From the NCBI GenBank assembly GCA_002898355.1, contig BEHD01000010.1, forward strand, positions 2,637-66,636: a stretch of DNA of 64,000 nucleotides. The letters are read 5' to 3'. This document shows, piece after piece, positions 9,309 to 24,338 of this stretch. The notes below the pieces were generated by a model, which was not told the origin of the DNA, did not search any database, and was given only the letters and a program-made list of their open reading frames with translations. Positions within the stretch are counted from its first letter, which is position 1, and the number at the start of each line of letters is the position of its first letter. Source of the stretch: an archaeon HR01 (GTDB lineage Archaea; Thermoproteota; Nitrososphaeria_A; Caldarchaeales; Caldarchaeaceae). A program made the position numbers and the translations under genes.

Positions 9309-10499
9309 ATGGGTACAGCAGCCGTAGTGGGAGTAGGCCACACACAGTTCGGCCAGCGCTCAGATATGACACTGGCGGAGCTGGCATGGCATGCCATAAA
9401 GGAGGCGTTACAAGACGCTGGAATTACCCAGAGGGACGTAGACTACGTGGTCACATCAAATGTTGGGGGCTGGAGCTCTGAGCCGCTACCAGCTATATTG
9501 GTCAACGAATACTCCGGTCTCGGAGATGTTGGAGTCATGAGGGTTGAGGCTGCATGCGCCTCAGGGAGCGCGGCAATAAGAGCGGCATATAATGCAGTTG
9601 CTTCTCGTGAGGCTGAGATAGCTCTTGCAGTCGGTGTTGAGAAGATGACGGAGTCGCCAACCCTGCAGGCTGTAGAGCTCCTGGGAAGGGCTGGAAACTT
9701 CTTCTGGGAGTTTGAGCAGTTTGGACTCACATTTCCAGCATACTACGCTCTCTACGCAACAGCCTACATCAACCAGTACGGTGCCAAGGAAGAAGACCTA
9801 GCTGCTGTGGCGGTGAAAAACCATTTCTACGGCTCACTCAACAGCCTCGCCCACTTCCAGAAAAAAATATCTATAGAGGATGTGATGTCATCCAGATATA
9901 TTGCCTGGCCCCTAAAACTTTACGACTGCAGCCCCATAACAGATGGCGCGGCAGCCGTTGTTATAGCGTCGGAGGATATGGCTAGGAAACTTACCGACAC
10001 GCCTGTATGGATAAGGGGCATCGGAGTTGCATCCGACACCTCCAACCTCAGCAGACGGCAAAATTTTCTGGGACTGGCCTCGACTGTGAAGGCTGCGGAT
10101 GAGGCGTATAGGAAAGCTGGTATAGACAAAACCGAGGCGGTTAGACGGCTGGATTTGGCTGAAGTTCATGACTGTTTCACTATAGCCGAGATACTTGCCT
10201 ACGAAGACCTAGGTTTTGTAGGTAGGGGGGAGGGGTATGCACTGGCCCGCGAGGGTGAGACATACAAGGGCGGTCTGATTCCCGTAAACTTGGACGGAGG
10301 GCTGAAGGCCAAGGGCCACCCCATAGGAGCAACAGGGGTCAGCATGGCTGTGGAGGCTGTAAAACAGCTTAGACAGCAGAATGCGAAGGCTCGTCAGGCA
10401 GACATCAAGAATGGGTACGCGCTAACTCACAACGTAGGAGGGACAGGCCACTACGCCTACGTGACGATATACTCTCTAAACCGTCCAACCCAGTCCTAG
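9309..10499 (+). CDS. archaeal thiolase (acetyl-CoA C-acetyltransferase, SCP-x/lipid-transfer type)
   Basis: Thiolase fold with active-site Cys in VEAACASGSAAI. C-terminal GGLKAKGHPIGATG. Confidence 0.85.
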   Translation: MGTAAVVGVGHTQFGQRSDMTLAELAWHAIKEALQDAGITQRDVDYVVTSNVGGWSSEPLPAILVNEYSGLGDVGVMRVEAACASGSAAIRAAYNAVASREAEIALAVGVEKMTESPTLQAVELLGRAGNFFWEFEQFGLTFPAYYALYATAYINQYGAKEEDLAAVAVKNHFYGSLNSLAHFQKKISIEDVMSSRYIAWPLKLYDCSPITDGAAAVVIASEDMARKLTDTPVWIRGIGVASDTSNLSRRQNFLGLASTVKAADEAYRKAGIDKTEAVRRLDLAEVHDCFTIAEILAYEDLGFVGRGEGYALAREGETYKGGLIPVNLDGGLKAKGHPIGATGVSMAVEAVKQLRQQNAKARQADIKNGYALTHNVGGTGHYAYVTIYSLNRPTQS

Positions 10500-10511
10500 A
10501 GGCGTTAATGT

Positions 10512-11045
10512 ATGGAGTCAAAAGAAAAGATAGAGAAGATGGTGGCTGACTGGCTTAAGATGGTTGAGGAGCTTATGAAAGAGTCTGGGCTTCCTATAGT
10601 TCCGGACCCGAAAACCTCCGACCCAGTCTGGGTTGATGTGCGGGAGCTGAGACTACGATACTTAATCCCTGTTAAAAGGATAAGAAAATTCTTTGAAGGG
10701 CTGGCTGAAGGGAAACTCTACGTCACAAAATGCCCTGCTAAGAATATCTACTATTTCCCACCCCAGGCCGACTGTCCCGCATGTATGGATGAAAACATCG
10801 TCTGGGATGAGATAAGCGGTAATGGAAAGCTTCTAACATACACGGTGGTGAATGTCAAACCCTACAGCTTCGCCCACCACTCAAACTATGTCATCGCCAT
10901 TGCAAGGATGAGTGAAGGCTTCAACATCCTATCATGGATGTCTGTGGATGACCTCTCTAAGATACACGTTGGAATGGATGTGAAGCTGGTGGTAAAAAGA
11001 AGAGAGCCTGAGGGCTTCTTCACATATTATCTGGAGCCCGCCTAG
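10512..11045 (+). CDS. DUF35 OB-fold / zinc-ribbon protein (thiolase-HMG-CoA synthase complex scaffold)
   Basis: C4 ribbon CPAKN...CPACMD followed by OB-fold region. Sits immediately 3' of thiolase, as in archaeal mevalonate-pathway entry complexes. Confidence 0.75.
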   Translation: MESKEKIEKMVADWLKMVEELMKESGLPIVPDPKTSDPVWVDVRELRLRYLIPVKRIRKFFEGLAEGKLYVTKCPAKNIYYFPPQADCPACMDENIVWDEISGNGKLLTYTVVNVKPYSFAHHSNYVIAIARMSEGFNILSWMSVDDLSKIHVGMDVKLVVKRREPEGFFTYYLEPA

Positions 11046-12256
11046 CCCCTCCTAGTGGCCGAAACTATCGAGAGGACATCCCTATCTTTAAGCTTGTAGT
11101 CGCCGGGGAGCCGTAGCCCAGTCCTTACATCCACAGCGTATAGAAGGCCCTTCTCTAGCTCTGTATGAACAGTCCTGGCCAGATCCCTGACCGTGGAGCC
11201 AGGAGGCATGAGAAAGACATCCGGAAGAACGTTGCCCGACTTGTCAGATAGCTTAACCGTGTCGGATATGGGATATACAGCGCTCATCCCCAGAAGCTTG
11301 AAAACCGAGACGTTGATGGCGAACTGAACACCTGTACGCATGTATTCCCCAAGTATCCTAGACTGGATGAAATCTAACGCCTTCCTCTGCTGGGACGTCA
11401 ACTCCGACTCCTTCAAGATCTTGAAATCCTCTTCCCCGGGAACATATTTGATCAGTCCTTTATGTACAGCCCTCCTCAAGGTTAGCTCTGCCTCGGCGCT
11501 GGCGGGAACAACGATATAGTTGGGAAGCCTCTCCCTCAAAATCTCAAAGTTGGCCTCTGCGGTCTCGATGTCCATCTTGTTTGCCAGGATTATCATGGGC
11601 TTCGAGACATTCAGTAGATTCTCGGCGAATCTTTTCTCATCCGTTATTTTCCAGTTTCCGAATTCTTTACCATCGAGCCCTGAAAGTTTCAAGGCGGCCT
11701 CCACATGCTTCTCAGTTATTTTGGCTCCTCGGAGTATGCTGGACAGTGTCTCGGGTAGGTCTCGGCCTGCCTTCAAGTTGCGGTCTATCTTATCATCCTG
11801 CCTGTCTATCAGCTTCAAGAGCCACATCACCAGCTCCTCATGGATATCGAAGACATCGGCCAGTGGGTTTCCCTTACCCGGCTCCGTTAGCCTACCCTCC
11901 TCATCCACGCTTCCCGAGGCATCAACGATGTGAATAAGAGCGTCTGCTTGTGATGCTACAGAGAGGAACTGGTTTCCGAGACCCTTCCCAGCCCAAGCCC
12001 CCTTTATTAATCCTGGAAGATCTATAAGCTCTATCGGTATATGTCTAAAACCTTCTACACATAGGGAGTTTCTGGGGTTATCGGTCACCTTTAACTCTCT
12101 GCAGACGCACGGGGTAACTGCGTATCCGGTGCCGTAGTTTGGCTGCTTTGTGGTGAACGGATATGTGGAGACCTCCGCCTGAAGAAGAGTGGCCGCATTA
12201 AAGAAGGTGGTCTTCCCTGCGTTGGTCTTCCCTATAAGTCCGATTTTAACGTGCAA
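11042..12256 (-). CDS. Obg-family GTPase (DRG/YchF-like) with C-terminal TGS domain
   Basis: G1 GLIGKTNAGKTT, G3 DLPGL, G4 ANKMD. C-terminal TGS-like ...DRDVLSIVS. Confidence 0.7.
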   Translation of the reverse strand: MHVKIGLIGKTNAGKTTFFNAATLLQAEVSTYPFTTKQPNYGTGYAVTPCVCRELKVTDNPRNSLCVEGFRHIPIELIDLPGLIKGAWAGKGLGNQFLSVASQADALIHIVDASGSVDEEGRLTEPGKGNPLADVFDIHEELVMWLLKLIDRQDDKIDRNLKAGRDLPETLSSILRGAKITEKHVEAALKLSGLDGKEFGNWKITDEKRFAENLLNVSKPMIILANKMDIETAEANFEILRERLPNYIVVPASAEAELTLRRAVHKGLIKYVPGEEDFKILKESELTSQQRKALDFIQSRILGEYMRTGVQFAINVSVFKLLGMSAVYPISDTVKLSDKSGNVLPDVFLMPPGSTVRDLARTVHTELEKGLLYAVDVRTGLRLPGDYKLKDRDVLSIVSATRRG

Positions 12257-12303
12257 CTTCTACAGACCCATCATATTTTCCCTCAACCTAAAGAAAAACT
12301 TTA

Positions 12304-13170
12304 TCATAAAACCCGGTCGTAGTCCTTCAGGATATCGGGGAATTGCTCGATTACATCCTCGGGTGTTATATGGAAGCCCTTTTTCTTCACTGCCATAACA
12401 CCGGCCAACCCGTTAACACGGGCCGCTGCTACTGCGGCTTCGAAGGCTGTGGCGCCCCGAGCCATCAATCCCGCGGCCAGACCTGCCAGGGCGTCGCCCG
12501 TGCCTCCGACAGTCATGCCCGCCGCTTCCCAACTCTTTCTGTTTAAGACTACTGTGGAGCCGTCCGATATGACATCGACCATGCCTTTAAGTAGTATCGT
12601 TATACGGTGCTCTGACGCTTCCACCCTAACTTTTTCGGCCCTCTCCTCTAAGGTTGTGGGTAGCTCATACTTGAAGACTCTCCTATATTCACCTGCATGG
12701 GGTGTGAGGATAAACCCAGAGCCTTTAATAGTCTGGAGAACCTCGGGGAAAAGAGCTGTAGCATCCAAAACCGCTTTGATCTTGGAGTTCATCGCATAAT
12801 CCAGTAGACGTATTATGCCTTTTTCTGAACCCCTCGCCAGTCCAGGCCCAACCACTATGGAGTTTACACCGGTTATAGTGTCCACAACTCTCTGGACCAT
12901 CCTCGGTGTCAGCTTGTAGTCGGTTAGTGGCATGACGATTATGGATGGTGTATAAGCCCTGAGAGCGGTTGATATCCGCTCGGGGACAACGAGATACGCT
13001 AGGTCAACCCCTGCTCTAAGAGCGGCCAAAGCGGAGAGGAGAGGAGCTCCGTGATATAGCCAGCTGCCACCGACAACCATGACGACGCCGTTCTCTCCCT
13101 TCCTAGAATCCAAGCGTCTGGGCTTGCAGGCTGCAGCAATATCCTCATCTGAAGATTCCCTCACAATCAT
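12304..13170 (-). CDS. nnrD: ADP-dependent NAD(P)H-hydrate dehydratase (YjeF C-terminal / carbohydrate-kinase-like domain)
   Basis: GVVMVVGGSWLYHGAPLLSALAALRAGVDL... and GGTGDALAG motif typical of Nnr2/YjeF-C. Confidence 0.8.
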   Translation of the reverse strand: MIVRESSDEDIAAACKPRRLDSRKGENGVVMVVGGSWLYHGAPLLSALAALRAGVDLAYLVVPERISTALRAYTPSIIVMPLTDYKLTPRMVQRVVDTITGVNSIVVGPGLARGSEKGIIRLLDYAMNSKIKAVLDATALFPEVLQTIKGSGFILTPHAGEYRRVFKYELPTTLEERAEKVRVEASEHRITILLKGMVDVISDGSTVVLNRKSWEAAGMTVGGTGDALAGLAAGLMARGATAFEAAVAAARVNGLAGVMAVKKKGFHITPEDVIEQFPDILKDYDRVL

Positions 13171-13201
13171 AGATTATCCACTGACGGCCGTTGCTAAAAA
13201 G

Positions 13202-14056
13202 ATGCGGCTATATATTGGCCCCCACAAGATGGGGGTCGGGATGGATGCTGATTTCACGGTGCTGGGAAGCTCAGCCCTCGCCGTCTATCTCACAATATTT
13301 CTTAAGAACATGGGTTTTGATGTATGTCTAGTCCTGAACGGTAGGAGACTGGGTGATATACCTCTACAGCCTATGAGGGAAGACCATTTGGAGCTTGCCG
13401 GGGTAGAGCCTGGTAAATATTCAGAAGCCATCCATACAGAGTGTCTTTTAGGCCGGTCTGAAGAGGTTGTCAGACTCGAAAACCCCATCCATATCTGCCG
13501 CATGACGGAGGTCCTTGAACAGGCTGCAGCCCACCACCTCCTAAAGCTATCTATCAACGTAAACACAGATGGAACAGCCAAAATAATTGACTGTAGAAGA
13601 CCCATTGGCAGACCCCACAACGTCTTCATATCTGCGGGGATAGCGGATAACAGGAAAGGGTTCACCATAGAGACTCACACCCAGTCTCTAAAAATATACT
13701 TCGATTTCGGCCCCAGTTCAGAACTCCTCTTCACATACGGAAGGCCGCCCGCCAACGCTTCCAAAATTCTCATGACCTACAGCTACAGCCTCACTCCACC
13801 ATCGCAGCTGAGTTCAGCCTCTCTCTCCAACCCTTGGAAGGCTAAAGGGCTTGCACCCGCCTCACCCCTAGGCGATGCAGTCGCTGAGATACTTCTGGCC
13901 CAACATCTAGCAGCCACAGCGGACAGGGATGAGGGACTGCCAGAATATATAAAGCTGATCACGGAGAGTCAAAGAACAGTGGCCAGTATCATCGCTGGTG
14001 AGCATCCTGAGCCTAAATGTTTTCGAAGCCTTATATACTCTATAGACAAATACTGA
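13202..14056 (+). CDS. hypothetical Rossmann-fold oxidoreductase (ketopantoate-reductase ApbA/PanE-like?)
   Basis: Likely start MRLYIGPHKMGVG... (the ORF-track start at 13079 would overlap nnrD). Degenerate dinucleotide-binding motif FTVLGSSALAVYLTIFLKNMGFDVCLV. Weak family assignment. Confidence 0.3.
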   Translation: MRLYIGPHKMGVGMDADFTVLGSSALAVYLTIFLKNMGFDVCLVLNGRRLGDIPLQPMREDHLELAGVEPGKYSEAIHTECLLGRSEEVVRLENPIHICRMTEVLEQAAAHHLLKLSINVNTDGTAKIIDCRRPIGRPHNVFISAGIADNRKGFTIETHTQSLKIYFDFGPSSELLFTYGRPPANASKILMTYSYSLTPPSQLSSASLSNPWKAKGLAPASPLGDAVAEILLAQHLAATADRDEGLPEYIKLITESQRTVASIIAGEHPEPKCFRSLIYSIDKY

Positions 14057-14114
14057 AGAAAATCACGTTAAACTTAATTACCGATAAGGAGTATAAAAAA
14101 CAACCCGAAAAGAG

Positions 14115-14414
14115 GTGAAGAAGATGTCAGAAGATTCCGTGGTCTTGATCGGGCGAAAACCAACGATGAACTATGTCTTGGCAACGACACTCCCACTGGC
14201 TGAGGGGAAGAAGGTCGTCCTCAAGGCGCGTGGGAGGGCGATAACGAAGGCCGTCGACGTCGTCGAAGTTGTTAGGAGGAGGTTCGTACAGAACCTGCAG
14301 GTGGAGAAGATAAGCATAGGCACCGAGGAAGGCAGAACGGGGAACGACGGCCGAACCCGCAACGTCAGCACTATCGAGATAGTCGTCTCGCAGCCGAAGA
14401 CCTCTAAAAAGTAA
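14115..14414 (+). CDS. albA: chromatin protein Alba (DNA/RNA-binding)
   Basis: Strong similarity pattern to Sso10b: VVLIGRKPTMNYVLA...KARGRAITKAVDVVEVV...RNVSTIEIV. Start may be MSED at 14124. Confidence 0.85.
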   Translation: MKKMSEDSVVLIGRKPTMNYVLATTLPLAEGKKVVLKARGRAITKAVDVVEVVRRRFVQNLQVEKISIGTEEGRTGNDGRTRNVSTIEIVVSQPKTSKK

Positions 14415-14452
14415 ACCCGTGCAGGCGTCCGGAGTATCCGGCGCTCATATTT

Positions 14453-15253
14453 TTGTTTATTAAAAACAGGGTTTTAAGAGTTAAATATCATCTACTAATT
14501 ATAACTTCGTTAAGGCAGTCTTTATTATCTGGTCCCACATGTGTAGGTGGTTGGGTTTTGAGTCTTATATCCCGTGAGTGGGTTACTTGTTCAAGTTGCG
14601 GTAGGAGGACCCTCAAGAGCGGCTATTGTATGTGGTGTGGTAACAAGCTAGTTGAGCGGGAATTTACCAGTGTGGCCCCTGCGGGAGACCAGCAAGCACA
14701 GCCTCCCAAAACAATAGCCTTCAACTATGTTTTCAAGGTTGTCTTCTTGGGGGATATAGCGGTCGGGAAGACATCAATTATAAAAAGATATGCCCTTGGA
14801 CAGTTCTCACCTGAATATTTCCCCACCTTCGACCTCACAACCTACTCAAAGACGCTAGAATATCCCCCAATCAAGATAGATTTAACAATCTGGGATACAG
14901 CCGGCGGACTGCCGGAGGAGGATAAGGTTGGCCCTGTAGTTACAGGGGTGGATGTGGGGGTGTTGGTCTTTGAGGTGTCTAGGAGGAGTAGCTTCAACAA
15001 TATTCCAATCTACCATCAGATTGTGGAGAAGTTCAATCCTAAAGCCCATATACAGGTAGTGGGAAATAAGTTGGACCTGGGTTTTAGGCAGGTTGAGAGA
15101 TCGGAGGGTGAGGCTTTGGCAGCCAAGCTTGGAGGCTCATATATAGAGACCTCAGCCACCCTTGGCACCAATATAGATAAGCTGTTTAACAGGAATATTA
15201 TGGAATGCCTTAAAAACAGGCTTGACGCCTTAAAAAAGGAGTTAGAGGGGTAA
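14453..15253 (+). CDS. Ras/Rab-like small GTPase with N-terminal C4 zinc ribbon
   Basis: Zn ribbon CSSCGRR...CMWCGNK. G1 GDIAVGKTS, switch I Thr, G3 WDTAGG (Gly replaces catalytic Gln), G4 GNKLD, G5 ETSAT. Confidence 0.7.
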   Translation: MFIKNRVLRVKYHLLIITSLRQSLLSGPTCVGGWVLSLISREWVTCSSCGRRTLKSGYCMWCGNKLVEREFTSVAPAGDQQAQPPKTIAFNYVFKVVFLGDIAVGKTSIIKRYALGQFSPEYFPTFDLTTYSKTLEYPPIKIDLTIWDTAGGLPEEDKVGPVVTGVDVGVLVFEVSRRSSFNNIPIYHQIVEKFNPKAHIQVVGNKLDLGFRQVERSEGEALAAKLGGSYIETSATLGTNIDKLFNRNIMECLKNRLDALKKELEG

Positions 15254-16305
15254 TGGTGTTAGAGGATTCGATACTCCGCAGGAGTGATGTTCTACAATTA
15301 CTGAGTCAGCTGAGGTCGGGGAAGGTTAAGGAGTTAAGGCCGGTTTTAGACCCTTTGAAGGGATTCCGGTATCCAACCGCTGAGGAAGTCATAAAAACAG
15401 GCACGGATGACGTGAACTATATTCTAAACACGTTGGCCAGATTAGACGTTCTCAGAGGAGAAATCCAAGAATCTCTAAATGCTTGCAGCAAGTGTGGAGG
15501 TGCTTCACACTTCTTCACTTATAGATGTCCTTCATGTAGCTCATCCAAACTTGAGAAGGGGCCCGTGCTGGAGCATCTTGTATGCGGCCATGTGGATTTC
15601 GAACAGGCATTCGTCAAAGGCGGGGTCTACCAGTGTCCCAAGTGTAAGAAAACCATGACCACTCTGGGAGTAGATTATAGGCGGCCGGGGACATATTACA
15701 AGTGTCTCAACTGTGGCCGGATAAGCGCCATACCAGCCAGACACTACATCTGTGTTAGCTGTAAAACAGATTCTGAGGAGGAGGGTCTCATACTTTTCTC
15801 AGGCTTTACATACACATTAAACCCAGAAAAGATAGATGTCATATCCAACTACACGTTAGATCTCAATCCACTTATCAATTTTGTTCAATCCAAAAACTGG
15901 CTGCCTATCACCCCGGCAACACTGAAAGGTAACTCGGGCGTCAGCCACACCTTCACATTCCTCGCTCATCCTTCATATGCGCCGCCAAGGGAAGGGGTAG
16001 CTATCGATGTTGATATCTCTGACGAGCCTGTGGACCAGCAGCGTGTGTTAACCCTTTTCTCAAAAGCCCTCGATGTGGGTGTGAAAAATACTGCCCTAGC
16101 AGTTGTCGGAGATGTCAACGAGTCGGCCAGATCCCTCGCAAAGGCTTTCGGGATAATGTTGTTCATCGGAAAAACTGTTGAAGAAGTCTACAATAGCCTG
16201 TTTTCGTATTTGGGAGACTTGATAGCTAGAAAAAGTAAGGAGAGCTTGCGTGTTGAGGCGGAGTATCTGGAATCCCTTATCAGATCGCTGGAGAGAATAA
16301 GCTAG
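15253..16305 (+). CDS. multi-zinc-ribbon protein with winged-helix-like N-terminus (hypothetical regulator/partner of GTPase)
   Basis: TAATG stop/start overlap with GTPase gene. Five CxxC pairs (CSKCGG, CPSC, CPKC, CLNC, CVSC). C-terminal approx 150-aa domain of unknown family. Confidence 0.5.
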   Translation: MVLEDSILRRSDVLQLLSQLRSGKVKELRPVLDPLKGFRYPTAEEVIKTGTDDVNYILNTLARLDVLRGEIQESLNACSKCGGASHFFTYRCPSCSSSKLEKGPVLEHLVCGHVDFEQAFVKGGVYQCPKCKKTMTTLGVDYRRPGTYYKCLNCGRISAIPARHYICVSCKTDSEEEGLILFSGFTYTLNPEKIDVISNYTLDLNPLINFVQSKNWLPITPATLKGNSGVSHTFTFLAHPSYAPPREGVAIDVDISDEPVDQQRVLTLFSKALDVGVKNTALAVVGDVNESARSLAKAFGIMLFIGKTVEEVYNSLFSYLGDLIARKSKESLRVEAEYLESLIRSLERIS

Positions 16306-16322
16306 GAGATAGCTCATCAACC

Positions 16323-17786
16323 ATGAAGAAATATATCATACTGCTAGCAGTACTTTCCTTCATTACGTTAATCATTATACCTTTCATAGTTAGCAGGCTG
16401 ACTGTATGGTTCAGCTTTGTTGCTGGCGTGGCAATGGCGTTTGTGTTGACTTTTGTCTATCTGAGGAAGAAATCGTTCTATAGGGAGGATATTAGGAGAG
16501 AGAGGGCCCCCCTACTATCCCTATCTCTGGTTGTAGTTCCCGCTGCCACTGGTGTTGTATCACTTATCGAGGGCTACAACATCTTCCAAGAATGGTTTAA
16601 GCCCCTTCTCATCTCAAGCTTCACCATCACGTTCTTCGTCAATCTATTCTCGATTCCGATGGCCTTGAGAACAAGTTTCTTGGAGGAGCAGCTTGAGAAG
16701 GAACCTGTCTACATCACCAGTGTTAGTGTTATAATACCTGCATACAACGAGGAGAAATGGATTGGAAAGACCATCGAGGCTCTTCTGGAATCTGACTACC
16801 CAAACCTCGAGATAATAGTGGTTGATGACGGGAGCACTGATAGAACCTACGAGATTGCCTCCCAGTACAGAAAACGTGGGGTGATAGTTCTACGTAAGGA
16901 AAATGGGGGTAAAGCCTCCGCCATAAACTACGGCCTTCTCTATGCAAGGGGTGAGATAATCTTCACTGTGGATGCTGACAGTCTTGTATCAAAAAACGCC
17001 ATCAGCCTCATGACATCCTATTTCAGGGATAGGAGGGTGGTGGGCGTTGCCGGGAATGTCAGGGTTTTCAATAGGGTTAACTGGCTAACAGGTAATCAAG
17101 CCCTTGAATATGTTACGCAGATTAATTTACTGAGAAGGGCCACATCAACCTTCGGAGTTGTTCAGGTTATGCCGGGTCCTCTTAGTGCCTTCAGAAAGGA
17201 GGTTTTGACGGGTCTCGGAAGATACGACAAGGATACCGTAACAGAAGATTTCGATATAACTGTGAAGCTCCTCAAGTCTGGAGGTATAGTCCAGGCTCCT
17301 ACCAAAGCTTTAGCATACACGGAAGCCCCTACCAGTCTTAGGGATTTCTACCGGCAGAGGATAAGATGGTATAGGGGCAATGTGCAGGTATTTCTCAAGC
17401 ACAGAGACGCCTTCACGAACCCCCGCTTCGGCTTCCTGAACTATGTTATCTACCCGCTTCTCTTCATACAGGAATTTGTCATACCGACACTCGGAATCCT
17501 CACCATACCGGCAGCCATATTCGTCATAGCCTCAGGAGGCCTATACTGGATTATCAGCCTGATACTAGCATTAATTCTCCTCCAGTCCTTTCTGAGTCTG
17601 ATAGCCTTGGAGCTGGAGGATGAAGATGTTAGGCTTGTTCAGTACGCCCCCTTCGCAGTATACGGATATAAACATCTCTTGGATGCATTCATGTTAAAGG
17701 CCATCATCGATATTGTCTTTCTTAGACGGCGTGTGGGCTGGACTAGGGCAAGGAAGATGGGTTACGAAGTCTTGGCTCAGCACTAG
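16323..17786 (+). CDS. processive family-2 glycosyltransferase, integral membrane (cellulose/chitin/PNAG-synthase-like)
   Basis: N- and C-terminal TM bundles. GT-A core with VIIPAYNE, DDGSTD, DAD, TED (TVTEDFD) and Q(R)xRW (RQRIRWYRGN) motifs. Confidence 0.8.
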   Translation: MKKYIILLAVLSFITLIIIPFIVSRLTVWFSFVAGVAMAFVLTFVYLRKKSFYREDIRRERAPLLSLSLVVVPAATGVVSLIEGYNIFQEWFKPLLISSFTITFFVNLFSIPMALRTSFLEEQLEKEPVYITSVSVIIPAYNEEKWIGKTIEALLESDYPNLEIIVVDDGSTDRTYEIASQYRKRGVIVLRKENGGKASAINYGLLYARGEIIFTVDADSLVSKNAISLMTSYFRDRRVVGVAGNVRVFNRVNWLTGNQALEYVTQINLLRRATSTFGVVQVMPGPLSAFRKEVLTGLGRYDKDTVTEDFDITVKLLKSGGIVQAPTKALAYTEAPTSLRDFYRQRIRWYRGNVQVFLKHRDAFTNPRFGFLNYVIYPLLFIQEFVIPTLGILTIPAAIFVIASGGLYWIISLILALILLQSFLSLIALELEDEDVRLVQYAPFAVYGYKHLLDAFMLKAIIDIVFLRRRVGWTRARKMGYEVLAQH

Positions 17787-17788
17787 TG

Positions 17789-18127
17789 TTATGGCTTAAC
17801 ATGGCTACCCCATCGGCTGAGGAACATATTATCCAGCTTCTTATCCCTCATATCGTCTGGCAGCATTCTAGGTATGTCTCCTGTGATAGGATACCACCTC
17901 CCACAGCTACCGCATCTCAATATACCCTCAGAGATCTCGTAGCTGTAGCAGGTATGGCAGTCAGTCTCCCGGAGTTGGGAGATGTATCCTCCATGGTAGG
18001 AGCAGTATAGCTCGCATTTCCTTATTTTCTGAGGCGGCTGTATCGTTCTTCTCTCGAAAACTTCCAGAGTTAGGGGGAAGGCTCTACACATGGGGCATGC
18101 GAGTATGTCTGATAGGCGGTATTTCAT
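17789..18127 (-). CDS. Trm112-like / DUF343 zinc-ribbon protein
   Basis: ILACPMCR...L...RCGSCGRWYPITGDIP is the Trm112 signature. 112 aa with inserted Cys-rich segment. Confidence 0.5.
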   Translation of the reverse strand: MKYRLSDILACPMCRAFPLTLEVFERRTIQPPQKIRKCELYCSYHGGYISQLRETDCHTCYSYEISEGILRCGSCGRWYPITGDIPRMLPDDMRDKKLDNMFLSRWGSHVKP

Positions 18128-18133
18128 CCGATA

Positions 18134-19018
18134 GTGCGGTATTTACGAGATTTAAATAGTTACCGTGACATGCCAGATAATAGAATGAGTGGGCTGTTTG
18201 AAGGTGTGAAATCCTCAGTCCCGGTGGTGCTTTCGTTGGCTATCACCTGGTTTCTCACCTATATCATTTCGGGTGGGCCACCGCCTCCAGCCCCTGCAAT
18301 CACACCCATCCCCGAGCCTGCTGGAGATTCTGGACAGGCCCTCTATGCCCCAGCCCCATATCTGAACACGTTGATTGTTTTGACAACCCTAGTGGCGGGG
18401 GGAGTCATCATGGTATACCTGCTCCACCATCACCGAGCCCTCAAAGTCTTCGCTGCCTCACTTACTGCCGCAGCATCCTTCTCGGTGACAAGTTATTTTC
18501 TTCTCTTAGCCAGCCCATTGGATGGGCTCTTCGTCTTCACCATCTCGGGTCTCGCCGCATTAGCTGTTCTCTACTCCATCTTCAAGCGGGGAGGGGTGCC
18601 ATCAGTGTTAGCCTCTGCTTATGTGGGTGCATCGGCAGGCTCCGTTATGGGCATCTCCATACCTTACTGGACAGCCATCATAGTGTTGATAGGGGTCTCA
18701 GCATACGATATTGTAGCCGTCTCTATAGGTCCTCTCAAAGTATTAGGGAGTGATAAAGTCGGGAGGATACCTGGGTTAATGGTGGACTTTGGAGGCATCA
18801 GCCTAGGGATGGGTGACCTCTTCTTCTACTCTGTTGCGCAATCCTTCTCCATCTATCATTGGGGGCCCCAGGCTGGCCTGATGTCAACAACAGGTCTCGT
18901 AATAGGCTTCCTTACAACAGTATACCTCGCTGGAAAAAGACGCATTATCGCCGGACTCCCACTGCCCCTCACCCTCTCGCTTGCACTAGGCTATCTAGCA
19001 GGCTCTCTCCTTCAGTAG
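18134..19018 (+). CDS. GxGD-type intramembrane aspartyl protease candidate (presenilin/SPP-like A22, or prepilin-peptidase-like)
   Basis: Polytopic membrane protein, 294 aa. YD motif (GVSAYDIVAV) and GxGD motif (LGMGDLFFYS) about 40 aa apart in adjacent TM helices. P-x-L near the C-terminus. Confidence 0.45.
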   Translation: MRYLRDLNSYRDMPDNRMSGLFEGVKSSVPVVLSLAITWFLTYIISGGPPPPAPAITPIPEPAGDSGQALYAPAPYLNTLIVLTTLVAGGVIMVYLLHHHRALKVFAASLTAAASFSVTSYFLLLASPLDGLFVFTISGLAALAVLYSIFKRGGVPSVLASAYVGASAGSVMGISIPYWTAIIVLIGVSAYDIVAVSIGPLKVLGSDKVGRIPGLMVDFGGISLGMGDLFFYSVAQSFSIYHWGPQAGLMSTTGLVIGFLTTVYLAGKRRIIAGLPLPLTLSLALGYLAGSLLQ

Positions 19019-19968
19019 AGATGGCAGGCTACATACCTACCCCGACCGACATATCTCAGCGTAGGTTCCTCACCTCTGCATCTATCAAAAGCATACGGAC
19101 ATCTGGGATGGAAACTGCAGCCAGGAGGTTTTCTCGCAGGGTTGGGAGGCTCACCCTTCAGCATCGGGCGCTCGATAAACCTGTTTCGCGGGTCGGGTTC
19201 AGGCACAGACTCCACCAAAGCCTTCGTATAAGGATGGAGAGGCTCCCACAACACATCCGGGACAGGGCCTAACTCGACTATCTTACCAAGATACATAACC
19301 GCCAGACGGTCTGAGAAATACCTAGAGGTAGCTATGTCGTGGGTAATATAGAGGAAGGATATACCTTCAGATTTCTGAAGACCCTTCATGAGTTCTAGGA
19401 TCTCGACCCTACTTGATGCGTCTATCATTGAGACAGGTTCATCGGCCACTATATACCGGGGCTTGAGGATTAAGGCTCTAGCTAGGGCAACCCTCTGCCT
19501 CTGCCCACCGGAGAGCTGGTGGGGATATTTCAACGCAATCTCCTCAGGCGGAGTAAGCCTGACCTTCTCCAAGGTCTCCATAACTCTCTCCCTCCTATCA
19601 TTGATTCCATGTATTATGAGAGGCTCTTCAACAATGTGGTAGACATCCATGAAGGGGTTGAGGCTGGAGTATGGGTCTTGAAAGACAATCTGGCCCTCAC
19701 GCCTGAATAGACGGAGATTATCATCATCCAGACCTGTCAGCTCCACCCCTCTAAAGTATATTTTACCGGCTGTAGGTCTGACCAGAAGAAGAGTTGCACG
19801 TCCTAGTGTTGTTTTCCCGCATCCCGACTCCCCCACCAGACCGAGGGTCTCACCCTGGAAAATGCTCAAGCTCACCCCATCCACTGCCTTCACAACCTGT
19901 TTAGAAAACAGGGTCCTGCGGGACATGAAATAGACAGAGAGGTTTTCCACCTTCAGCAGGGGCTCCAT
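19012..19968 (-). CDS. ABC transporter ATP-binding protein, oligopeptide/dipeptide type (OppF/DppF-like)
   Basis: Walker [10 protein letters not shown], signature LSGGQRQR, Walker B, C-terminal Opp-type extension with CxxC. Confidence 0.85.
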
Positions 19969-19972
19969 AATG

Positions 19973-20926
19973 TCACCCGTAGAGAAGGCATCTCACCTTT
20001 ACCCTGCCACTAGAAAACATCGGGGGACGAACGGATATGCAGCGGTCAAACATTACTGGGCATCGTGGATGGAATCGACACCCTGAGGGCGGGTTAACAA
20101 GATCAGGTGGAGAGCCGGGGATATATTCTGGGGGTCTATCCCCCCGCAGCCTAGGTGTAGCAGCCAGAAGCTTTCTCGTATATGGATGAAGCGGATTCGT
20201 CAACACATCATCCGCATCACCCAGCTCAACGAGTTCACCTGCATACATTACAGATATCCTGTCACATATATCACTGGCCAGCGTGATGTCATGGGTTATG
20301 AATATCATGGCCAAACCCATATCCCTCTTTAGTCTTTTAAGGAGGTTCATTATCTGTGTCTGAACCGATACATCGAGGGCCGAGGTCGGCTCATCCAGTA
20401 TGACCAGTTTAGGTCTTAGTATGAGCGCCATAGCGAGCATAGCCCTCTGCTTCATCCCCCCGCTAAGCTCATGGGGGTAACGCCATATCGTCTCCTCAGG
20501 AAGCCCCAGCATCGAGAAGAGACGAGCTACCTCCCCCCTAGCCTTATCCCAGGAGATTTTCCTACTCTGCATCAACGGCTCGGCCACCTGAAAACCGATC
20601 CTCAGAACTGGATTGAAGCTGTTTAAAGCACCCTGGAATACCATCGAAATCTTTCTCCATCTAATCTCCTGGTCATATCTCTCTGCAGGTATTGCAAGAA
20701 TGTCTTCACCATCGAAGAGCAGTTCCCCACTACTAAAGCATACATTGTCAGGGAGAGTCCTCATGATGGCTAGGGCTATGCTTGTTTTGCCGCATCCCGA
20801 CTCCCCCACCAGCCCCATGGTCTCCCCCTTTTCCAGCTGGAAAGACACATCCTCCACAGCCCTCAGCACACCCCTCTCAGTCATGTAGTGGATGGTTAGA
20901 TTTCTCACATCCAGTAACACCATCAT
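19973..20926 (-). CDS. ABC transporter ATP-binding protein, oligopeptide/dipeptide type (OppD/DppD-like)
   Basis: [28 protein letters not shown]-terminal oligopeptide-ABC tail. Confidence 0.85.
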   Translation of the reverse strand: MMVLLDVRNLTIHYMTERGVLRAVEDVSFQLEKGETMGLVGESGCGKTSIALAIMRTLPDNVCFSSGELLFDGEDILAIPAERYDQEIRWRKISMVFQGALNSFNPVLRIGFQVAEPLMQSRKISWDKARGEVARLFSMLGLPEETIWRYPHELSGGMKQRAMLAMALILRPKLVILDEPTSALDVSVQTQIMNLLKRLKRDMGLAMIFITHDITLASDICDRISVMYAGELVELGDADDVLTNPLHPYTRKLLAATPRLRGDRPPEYIPGSPPDLVNPPSGCRFHPRCPVMFDRCISVRPPMFSSGRVKVRCLLYG

Positions 20927-22344
20927 CTCATCCTCCTAAGCCTAGGACTCACCACCGGCTCAAGACCGAGGGATAGAAGGATGAAGGTAAGACCCGTTAC
21001 CACTATCAGGACGCCTGGAGGTATGATCCACCACCATAACCCTATGTTCACGCCACCACTTCTGAAGGAGTAGTCCAGCATCTGACCCCAGCTGGGTAGG
21101 GAGGGATCTCCAAGGCCGAGAAAGCTTAGAGATGCTTCAGCAAGTATCGCCGACGGCGTTGAGAGAATCATCTGGGCCAGGATGAACGGTGCTATTCGTG
21201 GAAAGACATGTCTAGACATTATACGCCATCTTGGGGCGCCTAGAGAGACAGCGGCCTCCACATACTGTTCAGACTTCACCTGCAACACTATAGACCTCAC
21301 CACGATGGTCAGCCCAGACCAGCCGAAGACAACGAGGATCATTACAATAAGCCATATGCTGGGTTTGAAGATGAAGGTGAAGAAGATGAGGAGGGGGAGC
21401 AGAGGTATGTTGTTAAGGATATCGGAGACCCTCTGTATGATCTCGTCAACCCTGCCACCGATGTAGCCGCTCATTATCCCAAGACTTGACCCAATAGAGG
21501 TTGTTAGGACCGATGTCACGAGGCCTATGAGGAGCGCCACTGGAAACCCGAACAGTAATCCGGCCGCCAGATCCCGACCGATCCTATCAGTTCCGGATAA
21601 GCCGTAAACCTTCCCACCCACAACAAACTTAGCCCATGAAAGGTTATCATCATGAGTATCACCTATAAACACCACATTCACTATATACCTCCCCTTTAGA
21701 ACTCTCTCCCCCAGTCCTTCACCAGATAGCTCGAGAAAGATTATTCTCTCCGGCCCCAGCCTGGCCACATCATTATATGAGAGGTCTACATTATTCATCC
21801 TCAGAAAAAGTTGGAGCGACCTGGCCACCTGTTCTTCTCCGCTGAGAAATATCCTTTGGGATGGGTCAAACCTCCTATAGGGGGGTGTTTCCTCCGGGAG
21901 GACAGTACCAGCCGTGGCGAAGTATAGCGGGACTGTGAGCCCGTCTGGCCTCTCAACTGTTATTTCCAGATAGGGCGGCCGGCCATAAAAGATTGCCGGT
22001 CCCAAAGTGATGGATAGGAAGCTGGGTGTATCCGAGTATTCGTATTGGAAGTCCAGCCGGTAAACCTTGTAGTACTGGCCGTCTGAATATGTGTATGCCG
22101 GACTATCTGTGAGAATAACCATGTGTTCGGGGAGTTTATCTGCAGTGAATAGGTTCACCCATGAGGGGGGTGCCTCCTTAGGGTAGTCGGCCCAGTAGCC
22201 GGGGTTGTTCCAGATTCGCAGCCCGAAATCCTGTGGATACGTGATTAGGACATATAGCGAGACTATAGTCATGGAGGCTAGGAGCAAGACTCCCGCCTTT
22301 GACGTCGGCGAGCTCCAGAAAACCCTCCACTCACGTGCCGGCAT
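20923..22344 (-). CDS. ABC transporter permease (OppC/DppC-like) with long N-terminal extracytoplasmic domain
   Basis: C-terminal half carries the BPD-transporter EAA-like loop. Approx 230-aa N-terminal domain after the first TM. Confidence 0.8.
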   Translation of the reverse strand: MPAREWRVFWSSPTSKAGVLLLASMTIVSLYVLITYPQDFGLRIWNNPGYWADYPKEAPPSWVNLFTADKLPEHMVILTDSPAYTYSDGQYYKVYRLDFQYEYSDTPSFLSITLGPAIFYGRPPYLEITVERPDGLTVPLYFATAGTVLPEETPPYRRFDPSQRIFLSGEEQVARSLQLFLRMNNVDLSYNDVARLGPERIIFLELSGEGLGERVLKGRYIVNVVFIGDTHDDNLSWAKFVVGGKVYGLSGTDRIGRDLAAGLLFGFPVALLIGLVTSVLTTSIGSSLGIMSGYIGGRVDEIIQRVSDILNNIPLLPLLIFFTFIFKPSIWLIVMILVVFGWSGLTIVVRSIVLQVKSEQYVEAAVSLGAPRWRIMSRHVFPRIAPFILAQMILSTPSAILAEASLSFLGLGDPSLPSWGQMLDYSFRSGGVNIGLWWWIIPPGVLIVVTGLTFILLSLGLEPVVSPRLRRMR

Positions 22345-23390
22345 TATATCCTAACCCTCGGGTCAAGAACCACATAGAGAATCTCGAGGATGAACCGTGA
22401 GGCAATATAGATGAGGGTGTAGAGATATGTTAGGGCTATCACTAGGTTTTCATCGAACGATGTTATGGCCTCGTAGTAAAGCCTACCCATGCCTGGGAAG
22501 TTGAAGACTGTCTCAGTTAGAATAGCTCCGCCTATCGAGCCGGAAATAGCGAAAACTATGTTGGTAACTATCGGCGGTGCCGCAGGCCTTATGATGTACC
22601 GTCTCATGAGGAGATTCTCCTTGAGACCCTTGGCCCTAGCGACAGCCACAAAATCTTCCCTAGTCACGTTTAACACTATTGTCCTAGAAATATAGGCCCA
22701 ACCGCCTAATATCACCGTTACCAGAGTCAGGACTGGTAGCGTAGCATGCCATAAAATGTCGGCGGCTCTTTCCAGGGGTGTTGTCGGTGGTGGAGTACTG
22801 TAGAGACCCCCGAATGGGAAGATTCCGAGATAGAAGCTGAAGGCGAGGATGTAGATCAGCCCCATCCACCATGAGGGGAGTGCGAATGAGACAGAAGAGA
22901 ATAACGATACGGCTCGGTCATATCTAGAGCCAGCCTTGAGGGCGGCTCTGGCGCCGAGGGCTATCCCGACAGCACTACTGATAGCCACGGCCGTTGTGAC
23001 AAGGGCAACGGTGTTTGGAAGCCTCTCCAGAATTATATCGGACACCTTGGAGCTGCCTGAAAAGGATGTTACTGTTCTGGAGCTGCCCAGGTCTAGGATT
23101 AAAACCCTTAGAATCATCTGTGGGAGTCTGGTATACCATGGCCGGTCTAGCCCATAGGCTGTTATTAGCTCGGACCGATATGTTTCTAGCGCCCTCTCCA
23201 GCTCCACCGGGTCTCTTATTCTCTGGGAAAGCTCCTGTCTCACAGCCCTCAACTGCTCGCCCACATAGGCTGTCAAAATCCTATCCGATACACCTGTGGC
23301 TCCTAGAACCAAGACCACCAACATCAAGACCCCGAAAAGCACCAAAATAAGAGTCACGGCCTTCAGAGCCAGAACCCTCACCAGACTCAT
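22344..23390 (-). CDS. ABC transporter permease (OppB/DppB-like)
   Basis: Six-TM BPD permease. Probable start at internal Met MSLVRVLALKAV (the ORF-track start at 23501 adds a non-hydrophobic 37-aa extension and would overlap the neighbour). Confidence 0.8.
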   Translation of the reverse strand: MSLVRVLALKAVTLILVLFGVLMLVVLVLGATGVSDRILTAYVGEQLRAVRQELSQRIRDPVELERALETYRSELITAYGLDRPWYTRLPQMILRVLILDLGSSRTVTSFSGSSKVSDIILERLPNTVALVTTAVAISSAVGIALGARAALKAGSRYDRAVSLFSSVSFALPSWWMGLIYILAFSFYLGIFPFGGLYSTPPPTTPLERAADILWHATLPVLTLVTVILGGWAYISRTIVLNVTREDFVAVARAKGLKENLLMRRYIIRPAAPPIVTNIVFAISGSIGGAILTETVFNFPGMGRLYYEAITSFDENLVIALTYLYTLIYIASRFILEILYVVLDPRVRI

Positions 23391-23465
23391 CCTATGAAAA
23401 AAGTATAGACAATAATATAACTTCACGCCGAGATTAGATAAATATCGCCATCTGTCATCAGTTTT

Positions 23466-24338
23466 GTGAATTCTTCTGAGTTTGTGGCTGCCTGCTGTCA
23501 ATCAGGCCTGTTACTGGAGCTTGCCACCACACCCAAGCCGGGGCTGGTGGACAGGATGTCAAGAGTCTCCGAGTTCGACAAGTTCCTTATCTCCGCCGTG
23601 GTCCTTTATAGACACTTTAGGAGGGCGGCTGAGGGGTTGCCTGTTGGGAAATGTATCGAGGATGCGTGTAGGGATATGCTTTTACGGCAGAGTGGTGGGA
23701 ATACCCATCTAGGCGCTGTCCTATTGTTGATGCCTGTGGCGGCGGCCGCCCGTACATACGGTGATGCAGAACAGCTGCGGGGAGGGCTGAAGGCATTACT
23801 GAAGGAGCTGGATTACCGTGACACCATTTCTATTTTCAGAGCTGTGAGGATGGTACGCCCAGGCGGCTTGGGCAGAGTTGGCTTCCTCGATGTGATGGAT
23901 GAGCGTACCTTCGAAAAGATAGTCAGGAATAGGATAGGCCCCCTTAAGGCGTTAACTCCGTACAGGGAGTGGGATGTGGTGGCCCATGAGTATCTGACCG
24001 GCTACGAGGCATGTTACAGATTTGGATTCAGATATCTCAAGGCTGAGATAGATTCGGGTAAGGGTTTTAACGAGGCAGGGGTCAACACCTTTCTCAATAT
24101 TATGGCGAACATTTGGGATACCCATGTGATAAGGAGGCATGGTAGGCCCTCAGCGAGGATGCTCTCCCGGATGGCCCGCCGTGTGCTTGATGCTGGTGGA
24201 GCCTCCACTGAGGAGGGTGTGGAGGCTCTGGGAGAGTTTAGGATGAAGGTGGAGAGGGCCGGATACAGGCCCGCCGCCTCGGCCGACATACTGGCTGTTT
24301 CATTCACATTGTTGATGTTGGATGGGTGGAGTCCCTAA
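23466..24338 (+). CDS. CitG/MdcB-family triphosphoribosyl-dephospho-CoA synthase-like protein
   Basis: LELATTPKPGLVDR motif is characteristic of the CitG family. About 290 aa. Confidence 0.55.
   Translation: MNSSEFVAACCQSGLLLELATTPKPGLVDRMSRVSEFDKFLISAVVLYRHFRRAAEGLPVGKCIEDACRDMLLRQSGGNTHLGAVLLLMPVAAAARTYGDAEQLRGGLKALLKELDYRDTISIFRAVRMVRPGGLGRVGFLDVMDERTFEKIVRNRIGPLKALTPYREWDVVAHEYLTGYEACYRFGFRYLKAEIDSGKGFNEAGVNTFLNIMANIWDTHVIRRHGRPSARMLSRMARRVLDAGGASTEEGVEALGEFRMKVERAGYRPAASADILAVSFTLLMLDGWSP

Follow-up and report, generated by a model that had tools for sequence, protein, structure and literature searches.

Three adjacent genes on the + strand of the 64-kb window (the whole stretch of DNA analysed here) encode a Rab-like small GTPase, a TackOD1 protein and a membrane GT2 synthase. 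Their maximal open reading frames span 14453..15253, 15253..16305 and 16323..17786 in the ORF listing, the stop of the GTPase gene and the start of the TackOD1 gene share one base (TAATG), and 17 nt separate the TackOD1 and GT2 genes. This layout, already given in the preliminary description, could be read directly from the sequence. The locus comprises:

14415..14557, + strand: leader/intergenic region, with a probable operon promoter and an AGGTGG ribosome-binding site (read from sequence)
14558..15253, + strand: Rab-like small GTPase, 231 aa, TTG start (Pfam Ras, E=5.6e-33)
14588..14638, + strand: N-terminal C4 zinc ribbon of the GTPase, CSSC-x9-CMWC (motif reading and AF2 model)
14894..14908, + strand: G3 / switch II of the GTPase, DTAGG, with Gly replacing the catalytic Gln (read from sequence)
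15173..15247, + strand: extended C-terminal helix of the GTPase, residues 206-230, with the subfamily-invariant Arg221-Leu222 (AF2 model and alignments)
15253..16305, + strand: TackOD1 protein, 350 aa (Pfam PF18551, E=1.7e-34, residues 13-186)
15253..15447, + strand: winged-helix-like N-terminal part of the TackOD1 protein, residues 1-65
15451..15819, + strand: Cys-rich beta region of the TackOD1 protein, residues 67-189 (motifs and AF2 model)
15865..16170, + strand: restriction-endonuclease-like (Mrr_cat-like) alpha/beta domain of the TackOD1 protein, residues 205-306
16177..16299, + strand: long C-terminal helix of the TackOD1 protein, residues 309-349, with the motif L[KR]xEAExLE
16323..17786, + strand: membrane GT2 synthase, 487 aa, PgaC/IcaA-, NodC- and chitin-synthase-like (Pfam and NCBIfam matches)

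The reading frame previously proposed for the GTPase gene was kept, but its start at 14453 was not. The gene most likely starts at the TTG codon at 14558, since a database protein with 100% identity to the window GTPase (P0015) is annotated with a length of 231 aa, the orthologs open with M(S/G)LISREW, the AGGTGG motif lies 7 nt upstream of this TTG and the stretch 14453-14500 is AT-rich and promoter-like. The 35 codons ahead of this TTG in the maximal frame (14453-14557) are probably untranslated, and the AT-rich TTTATTAAAAA and TTAAATAT within the leader would probably constitute the operon promoter. Scanning for sigma-70 promoters and terminators, a model inapplicable to archaea, gave matches no more frequent than in shuffled sequence. 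No second TackOD1 gene or second GTPase of this subfamily was found elsewhere in the 64-kb window.

Sequence features of the three proteins

The closest solved structures to the window GTPase were Sec4 and Rab proteins, and its AF2 model reached a mean pLDDT of 88.4. Among the G boxes initially described as canonical, G1 (the P-loop GDIAVGKT, residues 65-72 of the 231-aa protein) and G4 (NKLD, residues 170-173) are so, while G5 (SAT, residues 199-201) is only near-canonical when compared to SAK. In switch I, the Thr contacting Mg and the gamma-phosphate is present as T90 in PEYFPT, aligned with the invariant Thr. The reported loss of the catalytic Gln held: G3 reads DTAGG in place of the DxxGQ of the Ras superfamily, the Gly codon is GGA, from which Gln would need at least two base changes, and the Gly is kept in all close orthologs (DTAGG or DTSGG), which excludes a sequencing error. 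None of the 21 subfamily sequences in our alignments carried DxxGQ. With an intact P-loop, NKxD and switch-I Thr and no catalytic Gln, the GTPase would bind GTP and hydrolyse it very slowly. The GAP-dependent hydrolysis also envisaged at first found no candidate GAP, as the operon revealed no fold of the roadblock, longin or GAP type; similarly, no roadblock/LC7 (MglB) or longin partner adjoins the GTPase. Some subfamily members may not switch on nucleotide state, since they have lost G60 or the switch-I Thr, the latter being missing from the DIEPT subgroup.

The subfamily is distinguished by an N-terminal MFERSFKV and by the invariant Arg-Leu in its long C-terminal helix. The C4 ribbon, which the AF2 model connects to the G domain through a disordered linker, was confirmed; it is kept in the orthologs with a complete N-terminus (P0016, L001 and L013), limited to the close clade of the window and absent from the other subfamily members. 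The window GTPase ends in ...KKELEG and has no C-terminal Cys prenylation motif, unlike the eukaryotic Rabs in the same alignment, which end in CxC or CC.

The second protein scored 119.4 bits against the TackOD1 model, above the gathering cut-off of 32, and was modelled by AF2 with a mean pLDDT of 88. It had been anticipated not to be a well-known unrelated enzyme, and it proved to belong to an uncharacterised signal-output domain family. The five CxxC pairs (residues 78, 92, 128, 151 and 167) and the winged-helix-like N-terminus were as first described; the CxxC motifs and an HxxC at 108 are predicted to form three zinc sites, and the Cys-rich region agrees with the TackOD1 description in PMC5847659. 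The C-terminal domain, previously left unassigned with roadblock, longin or GAP families in mind, has a restriction-endonuclease-like fold instead. The catalytic (D/E)xK / D...(D/E/Q)xK signature is absent, the window protein having SHTFTF and VAIDVDIS at the motif positions, and these columns are unconserved in the TackOD1-protein alignment and in the Mrr_cat-matching relatives. Judged from its sequence, the domain is an inactive restriction-endonuclease-like fold. Response_reg, the model for a REC receiver domain, gave no match to the window protein, which is not a response regulator. A C-terminal helix of 41-48 residues with L[KR]xEAExLE was found in TackOD1 proteins from all GTPase-positive loci (11/11); at most GTPase-negative loci the tail comprises 10-30 residues and lacks this motif. 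L021 and L023 have a similar tail, yet no adjoining GTPase, and the association between GTPase and helix may reflect the shared ancestry of one clade.

The identification of the third gene as a GT2 was borne out by Pfam Glycos_transf_2 (E=1.2e-39), and Pfam chitin-synthase models matched too. The protein carries DDG168, DAD217, TED307 and QRIRW345, and hydropathy revealed four hydrophobic segments near the N-terminus (5-113) and two or more near the C-terminus (375-428). It thus has the DxD, TED and QxxRW motifs between transmembrane segments that define a processive membrane GT2, and these motifs suggest that the enzyme is probably processive and polymer-making.

Conservation of the cassette and exchange of its inputs

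The preliminary description had staked its proposal on the three genes being co-located in other genomes. The order GTPase-TackOD1-GT2, with overlapping or near-abutting genes, recurred in at least five lineages (Nitrososphaerota, Bathyarchaeia, Nezhaarchaeales, Nitrosopumilales and Nitrososphaerales) with differing flanking genes. Close orthologs (L001-L004 and L013; 59-62% identity) were set aside because their whole neighbourhood is syntenic, which makes them uninformative on functional linkage, and linkage was judged on relatives at 26-36% identity. When the GTPase subfamily was looked up in reverse, a TackOD1 gene was immediately downstream in 6/6 members and a GT2 was present in all five loci with enough sequence. 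The spacing between GTPase and TackOD1 genes was 5 nt or less, or the genes overlapped, in every case, which suggests translational coupling.

TackOD1-GT2 adjacency was scored with the family HMM (E<1e-30) and a GT2 within 2 kb of the TackOD1 gene, and a GT2 was found in 30 out of 43 species-level loci. Nine of the GT2-negative loci were cut by contig ends, leaving 34 evaluable loci from archaea and bacteria, with adjacency in 30. The adjacency loci were archaeal (Bathyarchaeia, Nitrososphaeria, Nezhaarchaeales and Hadarchaeota) and bacterial (Chloroflexi, Alphaproteobacteria, Bacteroidales, Desulfobacterales, Caldisericaceae, Aminicenantes and Mycobacteriaceae); the TackOD1 and GT2 genes often overlap, and flanks vary between loci. 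The constant partner of the synthase is TackOD1, not the GTPase. A polysaccharide context was apparent at several loci, with a polysaccharide deacetylase within the L015 cassette, a sugar-nucleotide epimerase/dehydratase in L035 and a TackOD1 fused to a UDP-Glc dehydrogenase-like domain in P0336. Domain scanning of 10 long members, taken from the top 150 of the family, revealed no TackOD1-GT2 fusion; the only fusions were to REC, Mrr_cat, rubrerythrin and UDP-Glc dehydrogenase-like domains.

Where the GTPase stands in the window, other lineages have REC, V4R, ACT-V4R, KaiC with a NitrOD5-like protein, rubrerythrin or a degenerate GGDEF. This position is therefore a slot for signal input, which the GTPase fills as one of several interchangeable input modules. 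A REC domain is present in the TackOD1 relatives L030, L038, L052 and P0255, and bacterial members carry the degenerate GGDEF in place of the endonuclease-like domain. V4R is an additional gene in many relatives, and a four-gene form (GTPase, TackOD1, GT2 and V4R) occurs in L017 and L056-L058. The V4R HMM gave no match in the 64-kb window, and no V4R or ACT-V4R gene follows its GT2; the window is a three-gene variant in which V4R is absent and a zinc ribbon is added to the GTPase. V4R also accompanies TackOD1-GT2 at loci without a GTPase, and may thus sense a small molecule instead of promoting nucleotide exchange.

Proposed control of the synthase and competing readings

Altogether, we assign a probability of about one half to the three-gene operon being a signalling cassette, in which a nucleotide switch acts via TackOD1 on a membrane GT2 polysaccharide synthase. 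The output controlled within this one operon would be a GT2 of the PgaC / chitin-synthase kind that is embedded in the membrane and probably processive. The TackOD1 protein, which accompanies this family of synthases throughout archaea and bacteria, would be the conserved output or adaptor component. The GTPase would act as the input switch, reporting nucleotide state or a bound partner; its extended C-terminal helix may pair with the extra C-terminal helix of TackOD1 in GTPase-containing cassettes, and TackOD1 would then activate or inactivate the synthase, most likely by contacting it directly at the membrane. We infer the control of the synthase by the GTPase and TackOD1 from genomic context; each of the binding steps, their dependence on nucleotide and the kind of polymer made are proposals as well. 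The original suggestion of a GTPase switch on exopolysaccharide synthesis is supported by this context, but has to be amended as to which protein is constantly linked to the synthase.

It is possible, although we consider it unlikely, that the same cassette works by transcriptional control. TackOD1 would then bind DNA as a regulator that arose from an inactivated endonuclease of the Mrr type and that switches the synthase operon beside it and, at other loci, operons for type IV pili, with the GTPase, REC or V4R altering its DNA binding. The winged helix, zinc ribbons and Mrr-like fold do make the TackOD1 protein resemble a DNA-binding protein, and most response-regulator output domains bind DNA. 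The passages on TackOD1 in PMC5847659 define it as an output domain of response regulators, and type IV pilus loci without GT2 (the TackOD1-family members L024, L034 and L040, and the pilus loci covered in PMC4858521) would suit a family of surface-structure regulators. However, it would be unusual for a regulator and its target to stay paired across two domains of life as TackOD1 and one enzyme family do, with genes in the same direction and often overlapping; the degenerate GGDEF of bacterial members recalls post-translational c-di-GMP receptors such as PelD, the P0336 relative is fused to a sugar-nucleotide dehydrogenase, and small Ras-like GTPases usually work by protein contacts at membranes.

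More doubtful is that the GT2 is not an exopolysaccharide synthase but a minimal transferase of the cellulose-synthase fold, serving lipid-carrier, N-glycan or envelope glycosylation, in which case the cassette would regulate envelope glycosylation and not polymer secretion. The solved relatives of the window GT2 are 6yv7, BcsA and hyaluronan synthase, the best being 6yv7, a non-processive archaeal (Pyrobaculum) mannosyltransferase (E=7e-21). The PgaC/IcaA score (190.5 bits) is far under the cut-off of the equivalog TIGR03937 (422.3), the NodC score is likewise far under its equivalog cut-off, and L060 has a PMT-like GT-C gene downstream. Against this, TED and QRIRW are intact in the window GT2, whereas 6yv7 has WRIRR aligned to QRIRW; the highest family scores were those of PgaC/IcaA, XrtG-associated GT2 and NodC, next to the chitin-synthase matches, and the L015 cassette contains the deacetylase. 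Finally, the endonuclease-like fold and a GC content of the three-gene region (0.47) slightly below its surroundings could recall a defence or mobile element, or simply unrelated neighbours, but this is most improbable given that the cassette is kept in many unrelated genomic contexts, that (D/E)xK is missing and no PADLOC defence model matched any of the three proteins, and that no integrase or repeats were seen around the genes, which are flanked by housekeeping genes in synteny with relatives.

Relation to known systems and significance

Bacterial synthase-dependent exopolysaccharide systems such as PgaCD, BcsA-PilZ, PelD-PelF and Alg44-Alg8 have a membrane GT2 beside a dedicated cytoplasmic signal-receiving partner. 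Similarly, the window GT2 adjoins a candidate signalling partner, and the degenerate GGDEF of bacterial TackOD1 proteins is a likeness to PelD. In contrast to these systems, signalling in the window would rely on which nucleotide a Ras-like GTPase has bound and not on c-di-GMP, and the cassette is without a PilZ, PgaD or GIL domain, the adaptor fold (TackOD1 with an inactive endonuclease domain) being unrelated. The closest functional analogy, with no common descent implied, is that of yeast Rho1, the regulatory subunit of the beta-1,3-glucan synthase Fks1, in which a Ras-superfamily GTPase governs a membrane polysaccharide synthase. However, Fks1 is a GT48 and not a GT2, and Rho1 retains the catalytic Gln, carries a prenyl group and needs no adaptor to bind the synthase, while the window GTPase has neither the Gln nor a prenylation motif.

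Like MglA/MglB and Rup (Wuichet and Sogaard-Andersen 2014, PMC4316618), the cassette places a Ras-superfamily GTPase in a conserved neighbourhood with signalling partners; unlike MglA/MglB, the window contains no MglB/roadblock partner, and its GTPase best matches Rab/Sec4, not MglA. GT2 or zinc-ribbon neighbours were not reported in that survey of prokaryotic small GTPases. Asgard GTPase genes generally lie outside operons with candidate regulators, and their partners are hard to predict (PMC10933270). The V4R family is thought to be ancestral to TRAPP Bet3, according to a passage of the same paper that cites Podar 2008. A Rab-like GTPase and V4R share one gene cluster in the sister cassettes L017 and L056-L058, as in Rab-TRAPP, although the window itself is without a V4R gene. 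That the four-gene cassette is ancestral and a prokaryotic forerunner of Rab-TRAPP logic, with V4R as the exchange or loading partner of a Rab-like GTPase licensing the secretion of a surface polymer at the membrane, seems to us very unlikely; if true, GTPase-controlled export in TACK archaea would predate eukaryotic vesicle traffic.

The passages on TackOD1 (arCOG06883) in Galperin et al. 2018 (PMC5847659) and Makarova et al. 2016 (PMC4858521) place the domain in thaumarchaeal type IV pilus loci, as an output of response regulators with an obscure function. The window protein is a stand-alone member, an architecture listed there; these descriptions do not include glycosyltransferases, GTPase and V4R partners or the endonuclease-like C-terminal domain. 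As presumed at the outset, no earlier account of the GTPase-TackOD1-GT2 cassette was found in the literature on TackOD1/arCOG06883 or on small GTPases with glycosyltransferases or V4R, and this conserved archaeal cassette is apparently undescribed.

These findings define a dedicated archaeal GTPase subfamily whose gene order links it to two specific partners and a single enzymatic output, a small and testable system that proposes a concrete job for a Ras/Rab-like GTPase and bears on the open question of the roles of such GTPases in archaea. They also appear to give TackOD1, a family of about 2,800 cluster representatives, its first functional context, as the constant partner of a PgaC-like synthase with many kinds of input in archaea and bacteria. 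If confirmed, this would be a widespread and overlooked regulation of surface-polysaccharide or biofilm production.

Operon layout and the GTPase

Reading of the window bore out the three reading frames at the proposed coordinates, all on the plus strand. The GTPase stop and the TackOD1 start overlap in TAATG, and the gap between the TackOD1 and GT2 genes is 17 nt, as directly seen in the sequence.

14453-15253, plus strand, GTPase, maximal reading frame
14894-14908, G3 motif DTAGG of the GTPase
15253-16305, plus strand, TackOD1 protein
16323-17786, plus strand, GT2 synthase

The preliminary description had placed the GTPase from 14453 onwards. The extent of the reading frame stood but the start did not, as gene callers and orthologs begin at TTG 14558. 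This codon is the most likely translation start and would give 231 aa, because an identical database protein (P0015) is annotated at 231 aa, the aligned orthologs share the N-terminus M(S/G)LISREW, AGGTGG precedes the TTG and the 105 nt before it (14453-14557) are AT-rich. This 5′ extension of the maximal frame probably contains the promoter and is not coding sequence. The GC content was 0.47 across the operon (window 14001-18000) versus 0.49-0.54 elsewhere in the window.

The GTPase belongs to the Ras family (Pfam Ras, E=5.6e-33), with Sec4 and Rab proteins as closest solved relatives. The G1 and G4 boxes, previously called canonical, read GDIAVGKT and NKLD, and G5 reads SAT. The N-terminal zinc ribbon proposed before was recovered as CSSC...CMWC near the N-terminus, and alignments limited it to the window clade. 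The replacement of Gln by Gly in G3 is genuine: orthologs keep the Gly as DTAGG or DTSGG in the alignment, and therefore it is no sequencing error. An AlphaFold2 model placed an extended C-terminal helix at residues 206-230 (mean pLDDT 88.4).

A profile built from four GTPase lineages (the window clade and those of loci L016, L017 and L020) retrieved a compact subfamily of 175-205 residues, with MFERSFKV as common N-terminal sequence and an invariant Arg-Leu within the extended C-terminal helix. The DxxGQ motif was found in none of the 21 subfamily sequences, whose switch II variants include DTAGG, DTAGM, DLGGE, DTDGE, DVCGE and DANGK. In the subgroup carrying DIEPT, DIEQT or DVETT the Gly of switch II is gone as well, and the switch I Thr is missing from most members. 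Separately, P0023, P0126 and a set of Asgard proteins of ~337 aa are Rab-like GTPases extended at the N-terminus by ~150 residues that resemble a roadblock/LC7 domain; they were set aside as unrelated to the TackOD1-GT2 cassette.

The TackOD1 protein and the synthase

In the 350-aa protein, residues 13-186 match TackOD1 (PF18551, E=1.7e-34), a family of roughly 2,800 cluster representatives. The passages of PMC5847659 on this 'Thaumarchaeal output domain 1' define it on TACK response regulators as an output domain with 11 conserved Cys and term its function obscure, and those of PMC4858521 on arCOG06883, the same family, had earlier noted it in thaumarchaeal type IV pilus loci. The five CxxC pairs previously counted are present, with one HxxC besides. 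In the AlphaFold2 model (mean pLDDT 88), a helical N-terminus leads into a beta region rich in Cys; an alpha/beta domain (205-306) follows, and a terminal helix of 40 residues (309-349) closes the chain. TackOD1 relatives gave direct matches to Pfam Mrr_cat, the lowest E being 9e-17. Instead of the roadblock, longin or GAP domain that had been guessed for the C-terminal part, the alpha/beta domain is predicted to be an endonuclease fold, inactive because neither the window protein nor its relatives conserve the catalytic (D/E)xK positions.

In 11 out of 11 GTPase-containing loci, the TackOD1 protein carries a C-terminal helix of 41-48 residues with L[KR]xEAExLE. Most TackOD1 proteins from GTPase-less loci stop 10-30 residues past the last strand; L021 and L023 are exceptions, having tails that resemble the helix and no adjacent GTPase. 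Shared ancestry could explain the association between helix and GTPase. In the protein P0336 (743 aa), an N-terminal UDP-glucose/GDP-mannose dehydrogenase-like region is fused to TackOD1 and the C-terminal domain, which could be a genuine sugar-nucleotide supply link or a gene-calling artefact.

The synthase has the motifs DDG and DAD and, as first described, an intact TED, an intact QxxRW (QRIRW) and hydrophobic segments that flank the catalytic domain on either side. Its top family scores were PgaC/IcaA (190 bits, under the equivalog cut-off), an XrtG-associated GT2 and NodC, and the Pfam chitin- and cellulose-synthase models matched too. The nearest solved relative is 6yv7, a minimal cellulose-synthase-fold mannosyltransferase that has WRIRR where the window protein has QRIRW; among membrane synthases, BcsA and hyaluronan synthases come next. 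Elsewhere, TackOD1 and GT2 are separated in L015 by a polysaccharide deacetylase (PF01522, 2089-3123), a hint of a product like PNAG or chitin, and the L035 cassette includes a sugar-nucleotide epimerase/dehydratase. A polymer-forming enzyme is favoured because of the family scores, the intact QRIRW and TED, these deacetylase and epimerase cassettes and the dehydrogenase-like TackOD1 fusion.

A constant TackOD1-GT2 pair with variable proposed inputs

The operon is flanked by housekeeping genes, all syntenic in the related loci L001 and L004.

9309-14414 and 17789-23501, flanks: thiolase with DUF35 OB-fold partner, YchF-like GTPase, Carb_kinase-family protein and 13079-14056, a conserved frame with no Pfam match; next Alba, Trm112 (convergent with GT2), presenilin/SPP-like membrane protease and Opp-type ABC transporter

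Orthologs at 59-62% identity share the entire neighbourhood with the window and were rejected as evidence of linkage, being syntenic throughout. Distant TackOD1 relatives (26-36% identity) have unrelated surroundings, but a PgaC-like GT2 adjoins them almost always. Taking one genome per species and scoring reading frames with family HMMs, we obtained 43 TackOD1 loci from archaea and bacteria. A GT2 lay within 2 kb of TackOD1 in 30, usually immediately downstream and often overlapping; nine were left unevaluated, being interrupted by a contig end, and four were true negatives by HMM scoring. Three of these four have type IV pilin-like or KaiC genes around TackOD1. GT2-less paralogs in L024, L034 and L040 sit beside class III (type IV pilin-like) signal-peptide genes, with a KaiC-like ATPase also in L034, in agreement with the published pilus link.

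The preliminary description had treated the three genes as a unit, and GTPase-TackOD1-GT2 does recur in independent look-ups. In the reverse direction, six out of six GTPase-subfamily genes are followed directly by a TackOD1 gene, and GT2 continues the cassette in all five loci with enough sequence. A defence system or a chance neighbourhood is disfavoured. The third component differs by lineage.

Input modules and cassette forms
V4R or ACT-V4R: many Bathyarchaeia, Hadarchaeota
REC fused to TackOD1: Nitrososphaeraceae, Chloroflexi, Alphaproteobacteria
Degenerate GGDEF at TackOD1 C-terminus (weak match): several bacteria, including L035, L036, L043, L051
KaiC/GvpD-like ATPase and weakly NitrOD5-like small protein: Bathyarchaeia, L021 (2128-4748), L023 (40-2304)
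Rubrerythrin-like gene between GT2 and TackOD1: L009 (6522-7001), also L033
TackOD1-Mrr_cat-rubrerythrin fusion: P0378
Ras-like GTPase: window clade, L016, L017, L020
Four-gene form (GTPase, TackOD1, GT2, V4R/ACT-V4R): L017 (169-4023), L056 (6001-10635), L057 (6001-9714), L058 (6001-9707)

About 8 of 13 bacterial proteins have RxxD at an I-site-like position five residues ahead of the degenerate GGDEF active site, a spacing likewise found in c-di-GMP I-site receptors. In L021 and L023 the ATPase, a membrane protein and the small protein lie upstream of TackOD1-GT2. The rubrerythrin-like gene or fusion could serve as an input for redox state or iron. In its fuller form the cassette consists of GTPase, TackOD1, GT2 and V4R, since V4R or ACT-V4R follows GT2 in the four loci listed; V4R was not found in the window clade by an HMM search covering the 64-kb window.

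Proposed function

We propose that the locus would be a signalling cassette acting on the GT2 synthase, with TackOD1 as the putative output component constantly paired with this synthase family and the Gln-less GTPase as one among several interchangeable inputs. The GTPase probably holds GTP stably, is predicted to show negligible hydrolysis by itself, and probably docks on TackOD1 via paired C-terminal helices (206-230 of the GTPase, 309-349 of TackOD1). The closest functional analogies are the bacterial c-di-GMP-regulated synthases and yeast Rho1-Fks1. We give direct control of the enzyme by TackOD1 a probability of about 0.5; it is favoured by the tight pairing with a single enzyme family, which spans both domains and often involves gene overlap, and also by the variants with a PelD-like degenerate GGDEF and by the dehydrogenase fusion. 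Transcriptional control by TackOD1, to which its Mrr-like architecture (an endonuclease fold together with winged helix and zinc ribbons) and the pilus-locus paralogs without GT2 would point, is a less likely alternative.

Each component of the cassette is a member of a known family. We found no description of the GTPase-TackOD1-GT2 cassette in the literature searched; the passages on TackOD1/arCOG06883 in PMC5847659 and PMC4858521, the only papers there that name the family, make no mention of glycosyltransferases, and surveys of prokaryotic small GTPases report no TackOD1-GT2 neighbourhood. According to the relevant passages of PMC10933270, Bet3 of TRAPP has been proposed to descend from V4R (as cited there), and Asgard GTPase genes are generally not in operons with such partners. 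V4R has a low probability of being the exchange factor for the cassette GTPase, because it also accompanies TackOD1-GT2 where no GTPase is present. Nevertheless, it is unusual and notable that sister lineages encode a Rab-like GTPase in one gene cluster with a protein of V4R, the TRAPP-ancestor family.
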